Shown: in pieces, positions 34,227-36,146 of the stretch
Layout of the letters: each line of letters begins with the position of its first letter
Position numbering within the stretch: the first letter of the stretch is position 1
Source of the DNA: Candidatus Bathyarchaeota archaeon
Lineage (GTDB): Archaea; Thermoproteota; Bathyarchaeia; Bathyarchaeales; Bathycorpusculaceae
NCBI GenBank assembly: GCA_963826715.1
Contig: CAWGYA010000006.1
Location: 1 to 64,000 of the forward strand
DNA: 64,000 nucleotides
Direction: 5' to 3'
Program-made: the position numbers and the translations under genes
Notes under the pieces: model-generated
Told to the model about the DNA's origin: nothing
The model's input: only the letters and a program-made list of their open reading frames with translations
Database searches by the model: none

Positions 34227-35000
34227 ATGACCTTACTTTCTGACACAAGATACATTTTCATAAGGTACATGAAAAAACTCATCCGAACCCCTATCCTGCT
34301 TTTCTTTTCACTCTTTCAACCTATCCTATTTCTAGTGCTTTTCACACAACTACTCACAAGACTTAGTAATTTCCCAGGCATATTGCCCCCCGGAGTTAGC
34401 TATTTAGAGTTTGCAACAGCAGGAATTTTGATGCAAAACGCATTTGGAAGCGCATTACAATCAGGAAACTCCATAGTCGCCGATATTGATACGGGCTATC
34501 TACAAAAAATGCTCGTGACACCATTGAGCCGCCCAGCAATTCTTTTAGGACGACTAAGCAGCGATGCCTTCAGAGTAGTCGTACAATCAGCCATAATCTT
34601 GGGACTATCATACGCGTTAGGTGCCTATGTCACAACCGGCATTCTCGGAATTCTGGGAATATTCTTCACTCTTGCATTCTTTGGACTTGCTTGGTCAGGA
34701 ATTTCCCTATTTTTGGGTATGAAAACAAGAAGTTCTGAAACAGTTTTCGCAATAGGCGGAATCTTAACCTTTCCATTGCTTTTCTTGAGCCCTGCATTAT
34801 TTCCAATTGACTTCCTACCTGAATGGGTTAGAACCGTCTCCATGTTTAACCCTGTAAGCTACGCGGTGAACGCTAGCAGGGCATTCATGATTACCGGCTA
34901 CGATTGGGGGACGATACTTCCAGCTTGGGGAGTAATCGGGCTTGTCGCCTTGATAACGCTGAGCGCCACATTATACCAATTCAGAAAAGTAGTCAGCTAA
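34227..35000 (+). CDS. DrrB-like ABC-2 permease
   Basis: LFQPILFLVLF, DIDTGYLQKMLVTP, NPVSYAV. Confidence 0.9.
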   Translation: MTLLSDTRYIFIRYMKKLIRTPILLFFSLFQPILFLVLFTQLLTRLSNFPGILPPGVSYLEFATAGILMQNAFGSALQSGNSIVADIDTGYLQKMLVTPLSRPAILLGRLSSDAFRVVVQSAIILGLSYALGAYVTTGILGILGIFFTLAFFGLAWSGISLFLGMKTRSSETVFAIGGILTFPLLFLSPALFPIDFLPEWVRTVSMFNPVSYAVNASRAFMITGYDWGTILPAWGVIGLVALITLSATLYQFRKVVS

Positions 35001-35373
35001 AAGAAACAAGAAACGCTGATTGAATGCATGCGAAGACAATAACTCGAGTAGCCAATTGATACCCTAAGAAAAACTCTAATAATCCAGTCGGTTCCTTAAA
35101 ATGCCACCAACAAAGCTGAAAAAATCCTAAAAAACAAAACGCACATACACAAACGAAAACGCTTTTCTAAAAAACTATGAAAAATTGCGTTGTTCATAGC
35201 AAATTAACACATTTATGTCAAAAACCAAAATCGAACAACTGAACTCTTGGACAAAATTGACCACACACACCACACAAATGTCTCAAAAATTTAAATCAAA
35301 GCCCATATATGTAAGGCAATTGACCATTTTTTGCACAAAACCACCTATATTTCGCCACTGTACATTATATATT

Positions 35374-35592
35374 GTAGGCCGGGAAGTACGCTTTAAATGC
35401 GATGCACCAAGGCAAAGAGTGAATCGATCAAAACAGCGAAAAATCGATTCGCGACTAAAAATCTGCTTTGATGGGCTGAAACAGCACGTTGCAGTAAGGC
35501 TTGAGCGACAGGGTCAAAACGGTGAAAGACCCCGAAGCGGCAAAGAAAAGTCTTAATGGACCGCACAACACTAAGGCTTAGACCCGGCCTGC
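35374..35592 (+). ncRNA. Putative ~220-nt structured non-coding RNA of unknown class
   Basis: Closing stem GTAGGCCGGG/CCCGGCCTGC, seven internal helices (several with plus-strand G-U pairs), potential pseudoknot, TATA-like TATATT at 35346-35351, T-rich 3' flank. Confidence 0.7.
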
Positions 35593-35612
35593 TCTTCTAA
35601 TTATTTTACCTA

Positions 35613-36146
35613 TCAACCAAATTTTTTAACGATCTCTTTAATAACATTAAAGTTCCGTGTAGTTGCCTTCAATCCCAGCGTCTTCTCCAAAAAAGGGTTA
35701 GGTAAGGCACCTTCACCTCCACCATGAGTAACACTGAACACCTCTGAGGTTTCATACGAGATTATTTCAGCTGTAGATCTTGGAATAATTCGGGGAAGCG
35801 AAAGCGGAAAAATATTTGGCATAGAGTCAGTGAAGGTTACCAGAAAACTTGAACCCTCACTCTGTTGACCTTGAAATGGGTTTAATTCAATGATAAATTT
35901 TAACCGAGATATGGTTCTAAGAAAAATAGGAACATCATAACCCAAGATTTTTTTAAGGCAGCACTCAATTTCAGCTTTAATCACCCAGCTGTTTTCTACT
36001 TGAGTTTTAAAAATTACATTCCCGCTTTGCTTATAGGTTGAAACTTCAAGGTACCCCAAACTTTGGAAAGCTTTTTTCAGTATATCTTTAGTTACGATGT
36101 GTCCGCCGACATTGATTCCACGCAAAAAAGCTATGTAACAGGTCAT
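35613..36146 (-). CDS. DUF1697 family protein
   Basis: YIAFLRGINVGG, TYKQSGNV, ATTRNFN. Confidence 0.9.
   Translation of the reverse strand: MTCYIAFLRGINVGGHIVTKDILKKAFQSLGYLEVSTYKQSGNVIFKTQVENSWVIKAEIECCLKKILGYDVPIFLRTISRLKFIIELNPFQGQQSEGSSFLVTFTDSMPNIFPLSLPRIIPRSTAEIISYETSEVFSVTHGGGEGALPNPFLEKTLGLKATTRNFNVIKEIVKKFG

Follow-up and report, generated by a model that had tools for sequence, protein, structure and literature searches.

A structured RNA gene of Bathyarchaeia whose product is probably a circle made through a bulge-helix-bulge motif

Introduction

What is encoded by the strongly folding island found at positions 35374-35592 (+ strand) of contig CAWGYA010000006.1 of a Candidatus Bathyarchaeota archaeon (assembly GCA_963826715.1)? 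The stretch analysed, hereafter the window, comprises the first 64,000 nucleotides (nt) of this contig, and the genome to which it belongs amounts to 2.64 Mb in 8 contigs (96% complete). The island is contained in a 612-nt spacer between an ABC-2 permease gene (34227-35000, + strand) and a DUF1697 gene (35613-36146, − strand), so that it is flanked by convergent gene ends. A first interpretation made from the letters alone, called here the sequence-only reading, had described a GC-richer structured island and proposed a stand-alone, possibly undescribed plus-strand noncoding RNA (ncRNA) of ~220 nt, with an RNase P-like pseudoknot. The island itself was confirmed at these positions. Its + strand folds with -73.5 kcal/mol (z = -5.18), a stability not attained by any of 200 dinucleotide shuffles; in the same folding test the − strand gave z = -3.18. 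The stand-alone ncRNA is in agreement with the absence of any Rfam family, with a promoter of its own and with the convergent ends of the flanking genes.

We conclude with good confidence that 35345-35610 is a dedicated gene for a structured ncRNA that is turned into a circle by way of a motif of the bulge-helix-bulge (BHB) type; a proposal on a protein partner is graded separately below. The conclusion is carried by the conservation of the RNA, its structure, the BHB motif, a circular junction present in RNA libraries and the presence of the enzyme genes in the genome. The sequence-only reading had overlooked the main feature of the locus, which is that the closing stem and the conserved loop next to it form a BHB and that the RNA is circular.

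Results

Homologues and alignments

Full-length relatives with 66-82% identity were retrieved by BLASTN in 22 of the 36 other genomes of the genus. After identical duplicates, matches shorter than 190 nt and a three-domain copy from genome G013 had been left out, 26 copies were aligned (A1) and a covariance model (R1) was built from this alignment. A further alignment (A2) contains 65 model-aligned copies with two internal domains, originating from 63 loci, and 34 copies with a single domain (A4) served for a second covariance model (R2). The search for homologues and the covariance model proposed in the sequence-only reading as a check thus yielded relatives in Bathyarchaeia, and both pseudoknots described below covary among them.

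The closing stem and its loop form a canonical BHB

The splicing endonuclease cuts a BHB after the second nucleotide of each bulge. The motif itself is a succession of helix, bulge, helix, bulge and helix, in which two 3-nt bulges lie on opposite strands with a helix of 4 base pairs (bp) between them. This geometry agrees with that given in PMC12558985. In the RNA studied here, the interval between helices P1 and P2 (5′ strand AAGUAC, 3′ strand UUAGA) fits it exactly. The outer helix is P1 (35374-83/35583-92, + strand as for all the elements of the RNA), whose 10 pairs all show double compensatory changes in 65 sequences. It is followed by bulge-flanked helix H (AAGU 35384-35387/GCUU 35576-35579, 4 bp), bulge B1 (A-C-G 35388-35390, predicted cut 35389/35390), bulge B2 (A-G-A 35580-35582, predicted cut 35581/35582) and an inner helix CUU/AAG of at least 3 bp.

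The motif is kept in the homologues in its sequence, beyond its shape. B1 reads A-N-G in 97 of the 99 aligned homologues and B2 reads AGA in 92 of the 98 that have letters there. All four pairs of H form in 64/65 two-domain and 34/34 one-domain copies, the first of them being G-C (30), G-U (21 and 26) or A-U (13 and 8) and never A-C, and a 3-4-3 BHB fits the loop in 98 of the 99 homologues. Judged from the alignments, such an invariance of the BHB and of the junction hairpin described below seems to exceed what an endonuclease reading structure should need, which would be unusual. In diverged members from family f14 (L277:1894-2054, L281 and L276) and family f20 (L275:872-1014), P1, the BHB and P2 are nearly letter-perfect around another interior, made of nested hairpins in f14 and of a GC-rich rod in f20.

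The G-A steps present on both strands of the P1/P2 internal loop can also be drawn, in our reading of the alignment, as a kink-turn, the L7Ae-binding motif in which a 3-nt bulge and then tandem sheared G-A pairs lie between two helices. This candidate was dropped since the same nucleotides fit the BHB exactly and the cut sites observed, reported in the next section, favour the BHB.

A back-joint at the predicted cleavage sites in RNA libraries

According to an index of public sequencing runs, part of 35200-35800 is contained in 15 runs, four of which are recorded as RNA. The data on the circle are the assembled contigs of four metatranscriptome-labelled runs, which come from four studies (X5, X6, X9 and X14). 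None of the four has contigs extending beyond 35390-35581; that the P1 strands and the flanks are uncovered is by itself no finding. Position 35581 is joined back to 35390 in the contigs of X5 and X9. In X5 (soil; depth 17.4, the shorter arm at the joint having 68 letters), a contig of 222 nt with 99+% identity runs from 35514 to 35581 and then from 35390 to 35543, that is 192 nt plus an overlap of 30 nt. In X9 (RNA-Seq; depth 5.5, 35 letters on the shorter side), a contig joins 35455-35581 to 35390-35424. Related variants with 11-14 differences were found in X6 and X14 (both RNA-Seq) with the same joint, ...UAAGGCUUAG|GCUUUA... Furthermore, loose contig ends at 35390 continue into the 3′ end of the RNA and those at 35581 into its 5′ end. 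The joint falls after the second base of each BHB bulge, at the predicted cleavage sites. As the contigs cover only 35390-35581 and join 35581 to 35390, the mature product is taken to be a 192-nt circular RNA (35390-35581, + strand). The sequence-only reading had proposed to look for a discrete ~220-nt plus-strand RNA in metatranscriptome reads; the contigs describe this circle instead. In the ligated form, P2 is capped by the tetraloop UUAG (35578-35581), which bears the junction. Rings predicted in the same way measure 192-207 nt for two-domain homologues (240 nt in one case) and 106-112 nt for one-domain homologues.

One may suppose instead that the functional species is a linear RNA of ~220 nt whose ends P1 closes and whose P1/P2 loop may hold a K-turn-like site for a protein, the circular joints being minor species or artefacts of assembly. 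Such an RNA would account for the covariation of P1 and for the kink-turn that can be drawn at the P1/P2 loop, and the contigs are silent on proportions. It is very unlikely in our opinion: the contigs of the four runs never enter P1 or the flanks, the four sequence variants share one and the same joint, which is that predicted from the BHB geometry, and the 3-4-3 BHB is present in nearly all the homologues, as described above. An artefact is opposed by the longest internal repeat of the RNA, which is 8 nt and should not mislead a 31-mer assembler, and by the contig of X5 whose length is that of the circle plus 30 nt.

The enzymes that would make the circle are encoded in the genome of the window. 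Two genes with a tRNA_int_endo domain (96 and 76 bits; 184 and 185 amino acids (aa)), located on contig 2 near 176.5 kb and 207 kb, suggest a splicing endonuclease of the heterotetrameric type, and RtcB is present on contig 8 near 384 kb with a score of 591 bits. The heterotetrameric type is described in PMC5829648 as one of only two that cleave non-canonical introns.

Secondary and tertiary structure of the ring

The consensus structure was derived by RNAalifold from A1 and comprises 54 pairs, 29 of which show compensatory changes; in the one-domain set (A4), compensatory changes were seen in 25 of 33 pairs. The full structure, including two pseudoknots that we propose, was tested on A2. There, 95.1% of the cells pair, and sliding the 3′ partners by 1-3 columns lowers this value to 27-40%. 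Double changes occur in 55 of the 67 pairs, and none of 500 column shuffles reached any of the five measures. Because A2 follows the model, such numbers are biased in favour of the structure; the counts based on MAFFT (A1 and the one-domain set) are free of this dependence and agree with them.

The ring is a rod that starts from P2 (GCUUUA 35390-35395/UAAGGC 35572-35577). This helix is invariant within the genus, and it covaries from U-A to C-G in more distant members (8/65 and 2/65). P3 (35399-404/35487-92), into which P2 runs on in the one-domain forms, is the weakest helix: it is compatible with 22-26 of the 26 sequences of A1, mainly through G-U changes, and 2 of 4 pairs have double changes in 65 sequences.

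Two domains follow. Domain A (35405-35478) consists of P4 (35405-17/35461-73; double changes in 10 of 12 pairs), P5 (35419-28/35443-52; 9 of 10 pairs), the P5 loop (35429-42) and an A-rich bulge (35453-60). Its pseudoknot, PK_A, links CAGC 35434-37 in the P5 loop to GCUG 35475-78 in the strand 3′ of P4; it is paired in 98.1% of the cases with double changes in 2 of 4 pairs, CAGC/GCUG being found 53 times beside rarer UGGC/GCCA, CGGC/GUCG and others. Domain B (35493-35563) consists of P6 (35493-502/35548-57; 7 of 7 pairs) and P7 (35505-15/35528-38; 6 of 6 pairs), with a pseudoknot, PK_B, between CGGU 35520-23 in the P7 loop and ACCG 35560-63 in the strand 3′ of P6. PK_B is paired in 99.6% and all 4 pairs covary (CGGU/ACCG 28, CGGU/GCCG 9, CGGC/GCCG 9, CAGC/GCUG 8 and further variants). 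Both domains have the same layout: P4 or P6 forms the outer helix, an A-rich bulge of 8 nt then faces a lone A, and next comes a hairpin of ~10 bp (P5 or P7) whose loop has 12-14 nt. The four bases in the middle of this loop pair with the strand that immediately follows the outer helix on its 3′ side. Since one-domain homologues align to either domain A or domain B of the two-domain model, the two domains are considered homologous. A kink-turn at the P4/P5 junction was also contemplated and dropped: columns 53/103 and 54/102 of A2 are Watson-Crick paired, and the junction leaves an asymmetric bulge of 1 nt versus 8 nt, which is not the kink-turn register.

Among the eight helices of the sequence-only reading, five are kept in the homologues (P1, P3, P4, P5 and P7). 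The other three found no support. GCUUUA pairs with the 3′ UAAGGC instead of taking part in the CGCTT/GAGCG helix, the GCTG-AAA-CAGC hairpin is specific to this genome, GCUG being the pseudoknot partner of the P5 loop, and in place of the GCGG/CCGC helix ACCG is engaged with CGGU of the P7 loop. The same reading had noted that AAGTCTTA (35548-55) is complementary to a duplicated TAAGGCTT and had deduced two mutually exclusive pseudoknots. The pairing with the first copy holds, as the nested covarying helix P6, and the second copy pairs with GCTTTA; the supposed pseudoknots are thus the nested helices P2 and P6, and the real ones join each hairpin loop to the 3′ tail of its domain.

The duplicated word UAAGGCUU (35495-35502 and 35572-35579) lets GCUUUA and AAGUCUUA swap partners in the genome of the window only. 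An RNase P/MRP-like ribozyme or a switch, in which AAGUCUUA would form mutually exclusive pseudoknots with the two UAAGGCUU words, could be built on this property, both pairings being possible in this genome and the minimum-energy fold adopting the alternative one. The relatives do not retain the first UAAGGCUU as a word; its position forms a simple helix with the AAGUCUUA region, which covaries with double changes in 7 of 7 pairs. With, in addition, no match to any RNase P model and a canonical RNaseP_arch RNA on contig 2 of the same genome (170 bits), such a ribozyme or switch is highly improbable; a catalytic activity of another kind would be compatible with these data. The swapped pairing is either a coincidence or an alternative fold specific to the species.

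Points that weigh against the circular RNA

Several points count against the interpretation as a BHB-made circle. The ratio of circular to linear RNA, the strand and the precursor ends cannot be read from the contigs; X5 bears the flag 'RNA? (probably DNA)', and the absence of the joint from DNA rests on assembled genomes and not on DNA reads. The attribution of the cutting to EndA and of the joining to RtcB is drawn from the motif and the presence of the genes only. On the side of the structure, the single-sequence minimum-energy fold (-73.5 kcal/mol) uses the swapped pairing of the UAAGGCUU copies, the nested consensus without pseudoknots reaches -58.1 kcal/mol and its BHB register -53.6 kcal/mol, and there is little double covariation in P3 and little variation in PK_A. 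The BHB register is thus 4.5 kcal/mol less stable than the P2 register in this genome; by these computed energies, the two should be close enough for both to be reachable.

Comparison with known RNA families and coding potential

The whole window was compared with Rfam 15, as the sequence-only reading had suggested, and nothing reached the gathering score. In lenient mode, 35200-35750 returned a single row at chance level (a nematode snoRNA model, E 7). The Archaea_SRP model of the signal recognition particle (SRP) RNA gave neither a full nor a partial match in 35200-35750, the query being in unpermuted order. A canonical SRP RNA is encoded on contig 8 of the genome (152 bits) and a 5S rRNA elsewhere in it (69 bits). 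An identity as RNase P, SRP or 5S RNA was ruled out on the ground that canonical genes for them sit elsewhere in the genome. This disposes of the RNase P/MRP-like pseudoknot of the sequence-only reading; the P4 pseudoknot of RNase P was discarded as well, AAGUCUUA and 35495-35502 forming a nested covarying helix and the 3′ UAAGGC pairing with GCUUUA. A tRNA intron was excluded: ARAGORN found no tRNA in 34900-36000, and the flanks outside P1 are not conserved among the homologues. Inspection of the sequence did not reveal the pocket of an H/ACA or the box arrangement of a C/D guide RNA. Among the top-ranked papers on Bathyarchaeia RNAs, BHB motifs and archaeal circular RNAs, none dealt with such an RNA; supplementary tables may list unannotated circles.

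Two open reading frames (ORFs) do exist here, 35215-35556 (+) and 35393-35566 (−), and a protein-coding region could be imagined on either strand. To this explanation we give practically no credence. The + ORF has no Pfam family. Of the 49 homologous loci, just 7 (+) and 13 (−) have an ORF of at least 70 aa that overlaps the RNA, and its length varies; the conservation of 35215-35556, in which the sequence-only reading saw a possible refutation of the RNA, is not borne out there. Stops occur in all three frames of the 35390-35581 ring, the lengths of the homologues differ by single bases and their rings fall in all three classes modulo 3, and substitutions track base pairing.

Distribution of the RNA family

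R1 finds the RNA in 96 of the 120 genus genomes, and in 64 of the 73 that are at least 90% complete, with 1-4 copies per genome (1-5 across the wider searches, five being found in G204). In the order, 75/151 genomes match R1, including 33/34 in family f11, 19/19 in genus g16 and 4/4 in family f5; many of these matches extend over 143-148 nt only, one internal domain being missing. R2 matches 29 of 151 genomes in a sample of the class and 9 of 151 in a sample of the phylum, every one of the latter within the class (0/131 outside it). A degenerate pattern was also scanned through 185,579 species genomes and gave 116 stretches, 80 of which were examined with R2. The model confirmed 59 of these 80; 58 of the 59 are titled Bathyarchaeia, Bathyarchaeota or uncultured archaeon and one is titled as a Limnocylindrales bin. 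The other 21, all bacterial, are without R2 match. The family appears restricted to Bathyarchaeia and patchy inside the class, with diverged forms that slip past the models.

The number of domains varies from one to three in the family, the copy of G013 (contig 12, 34741-35065) having three, the extra one a copy of domain A. The genome of the window carries a second two-domain copy on contig 6 (68427-68662, − strand; 157 bits with R1), ~4.4 kb past the end of the window, which is diverged, was missed by BLASTN, has an intact BHB and adjoins an ArsR-type regulator gene and a 3-demethylubiquinone methyltransferase-like gene. Paired copies ~0.9-1.5 kb apart occur on contig 18 of G015 (same orientation) and on contig 14 of G070 (opposite strands). 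Two placements are out of the ordinary: L139, on the contig with the bacterial Limnocylindrales title, matches the RNA model with 63.7 bits, and L065 (G184, family f6) resembles the copies of the genus of the window (230 bits). Mis-binning or transfer is possible in both cases.

The neighbourhood of the gene varies within the genus, and no protein neighbour recurs in 49 loci. Taken with the copy number of 1 to 5 and with an interior that diverges strongly across distant lineages around a BHB that is kept, this could be the mark of an intron-like selfish or relic element, whose ring would be a by-product devoid of function or whose function would lie in the ligated exons, that is the small P1 hairpin. 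Several data are hard to reconcile with it, and we hold it to be quite unlikely. The interior helices and both pseudoknots are under compensatory change across whole families, the exons are short and conserved as a helix only, no transposase or integrase recurs as a neighbour in the 49 loci, and in f11 the RNA lies between the same two genes in 7 loci, which argues for vertical descent.

Transcription unit

In addition to the RNA itself, the gene comprises a TATA-like box (35345-35352, + strand), located ~28 nt before the first base of P1. The box noted by the sequence-only reading is conserved in position, the motif starting 31-29 nt ahead of P1 in most of 65 homologous loci (34 motif hits), and transcription would start near 35372-35376. 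Upstream of it, the promoter element TTGCACAAAAC (35331-35341, + strand) has the general form TGT-N-CAA-R-A and stands at a fixed distance from the TATA-like box in most of the 33 loci listed out of 65, another family included; it may be a B recognition element (BRE) or a factor site. On the other side, the T-rich tract mentioned in the same reading indeed follows the 3′ strand of P1 as a T-rich trailer (35593-35610, + strand), a possible terminator as read from the sequence, and T-rich runs are present at this place at many homologous loci.

The neighbours of the gene in the window are an ABC transporter, the DUF1697 gene and an SDR gene. The ORF at 33544-34224 matches only the C-terminal part of ABC_tran (profile positions 80-137), and the true start of this ABC ATPase gene is probably upstream of the first listed ATG.

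A neighbouring protein with a predicted nuclease-like fold

Outside the genus, 10 of 19 loci have an ORF of ~215 aa that lies upstream of the RNA gene, on the other strand. When the 151 genomes of the class sample were searched with a profile built for this protein (A5), it proved to be present in 74 of them, as a single copy and with E values of 1e-75 to 1e-120 except for three partial or fragmentary matches. It is encoded by 27 of the 29 class genomes positive with R2, the other two being 85% and 68% complete. Comparison of coordinates placed the two genes head-to-head, 79-519 nt apart, in 16 genomes. Searches of the upstream regions with filters off added G259, G266, G286, G361, G270, G350 and G045, as well as two weak cases, G332 (17.6 bits) and G265 (14.6 bits), the latter having by eye an intact BHB around a different, GC-rich interior. 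This makes 23 clear and 2 weak cases among the 74 protein-bearing genomes, from 8 to 10 families and always in this orientation. The diverged copies near the protein gene retain the BHB and the P2 words with an altered interior; among 13 more regions upstream of protein genes, 9 gave no RNA match, one of these 9 being of 134 nt only.

All 7 of the f11 loci examined (L070, L079, L103, L104, L106, L109 and L110) have the RNA between the divergent ~215-aa gene and a convergent ATP-dependent DNA ligase gene, the latter being treated as local synteny only. Since this synteny is the same with one or two domains, a domain should have been gained or lost in place.

The protein has 1729 homologues, 120 of which were listed, without Pfam family; the named ones among these 120 are hypothetical proteins, nearly all from Bathyarchaeia or Bathyarchaeota. 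NCBIfam gave nothing, and the sequences of the PDB nothing below E 0.49. With lenient Pfam settings, 1 of 30 members matched UPF0102 (E 0.0067). An AlphaFold model computed with 30 sequences (pLDDT 91, pTM 0.88) was compared with known structures. The best E value of Foldseek was weak (1.8e-3), many of the best-ranked rows being PD-(D/E)xK nucleases. VIA-align, over residues ~50-205, gave Z 9.3 for 3dnx (root-mean-square deviation 2.9, 105 residues aligned), 9.1 for 2okf (XisH-like), 8.5 for 1y88 (AF1548) and 7.2 for NucS. Atlas returned the PDDEXK family only, at lead level (score 0.86). The invariant residues E57, D83, E96, E98 and K121 fit a PD-(D/E)xK fold. These weak matches to a predicted model are compatible with a PD-(D/E)xK nuclease-like fold.

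We propose, tentatively and at somewhat less than even chances, that the ring is the stable RNA subunit or a regulator of this protein, each domain being a binding module. The proposal is prompted by four observations: the two genes lie head-to-head, they occur in the same genomes, the BHB and the junction hairpin are unusually invariant in sequence, and the RNA is built in a modular way from one to three domains. More doubtful is the further suggestion that both would form a previously unknown ribonucleoprotein specific to Bathyarchaeia, in which the protein would recognise the BHB or the junction hairpin. It would subsequently carry out the processing of the RNA, or else the pseudoknot domains would serve it as cofactor, guide or regulator of a nuclease activity. 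Other data speak against a partnership. In the genome of the window the RNA copies are on contig 6 and the protein gene is at 317537-318163 (− strand) of contig 8, and eleven genomes, this one included, carry the two genes apart. In family f24 the protein is present in 27/27 genomes with an R2 match in 1/27, and the RNA was found neither near the protein gene (8 loci) nor in 5 whole genomes; a crude BHB scan of this family gave G-U-rich hits, probably due to chance, and an absence of the RNA is not demonstrated by it.

Discussion

The proposed pathway to the ring would be as follows. A short precursor would be transcribed from the TATA-type promoter of the gene, and its ends would fold into the canonical BHB made of the 10-bp outer helix, the 4-bp central helix, the two 3-nt bulges and the inner helix. 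The archaeal tRNA-splicing endonuclease, presumably EndA, would cut both bulges (35389|35390 and 35581|35582) and RtcB would ligate the ends of the excised piece to a 192-nt ring. The resulting rod should present the sequence-invariant P2 junction hairpin (UUAG) with the ligation site, then two homologous fold-back domains.

To our knowledge, archaeal circles made through a BHB count as by-products or as intermediates, in the case of tRNA introns and pre-rRNA, apart from one permuted SRP RNA that was repaired. In the present case, a complete gene family appears to serve solely for making a ring whose tertiary structure is conserved and whose domains vary in number in a modular manner, and this family is widespread in an archaeal class that is abundant in soils, peat and sediments and has hardly been cultured. 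It is a new RNA family that could enter the databases and, with the putative nuclease-fold family of 1729 homologues, itself uncharacterised, it offers a candidate RNA-protein pair.

The resemblance to archaeal RNase P RNA is confined to a short ...GGCUUA... ahead of the 3′ strand of the closing stem; here the P4-like pairing is a nested helix, and GGCUUAG belongs to the BHB and the junction hairpin. The SRP RNA of Thermoproteus is circular and permuted (Plagens et al. 2015, PMC4731332). In both cases the splicing machinery serves beyond tRNA and rRNA. In Thermoproteus, the circle is the rearranged copy of a universal RNA whose function is known, whereas an ordinary SRP RNA is encoded in the genome studied here, no known family is matched by the ring even partly, and the gene of the ring is no permuted form of anything recognised.

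Circular intermediates of pre-16S and pre-23S rRNA, those of Bathyarchaeia included, are reported in PMC12918454, and circular 23S rRNA has been described as well. They share with the present RNA a BHB in a processing stem, which is long in rRNA, followed by circularisation; the gene described here lies outside the rRNA operon and its BHB is conserved in sequence. Other structured archaeal ncRNAs also have circular forms, some of them without known function. C/D-box sRNAs and further ncRNAs occur as circular forms of linear RNAs (PMC3326292), and for the circles of IS200/IS605 omega-RNA the authors of PMC12558985 found no BHB motif and suggest a pathway independent of BHB and EndA. Unlike these, the ring of Bathyarchaeia has a canonical BHB and its linear form was not seen in the contigs; no TnpB or IscB was seen beside the RNA among the neighbours examined.

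BHB processing also gives circles from tRNA introns and rRNA intermediates (PMC12558985, PMC3326292). Circular tRNA introns include a C/D-box sRNA carried by the intron of tRNA-Trp (PMC12558985), and in metazoans the tRNA intronic circular RNAs (tricRNAs) are circular tRNA introns (PMC4536317). As in these systems, a BHB-flanked piece would be excised and ligated, and the excised piece may be a functional RNA. The differences are that the ring of Bathyarchaeia, 106-207 nt long, is highly structured and that no tRNA surrounds it. As the exons consist only of a 10-bp hairpin with a short leader and trailer, the gene seems to exist for the ring, which would make it a natural counterpart to the engineered circular-RNA systems built on tRNA-splicing enzymes.

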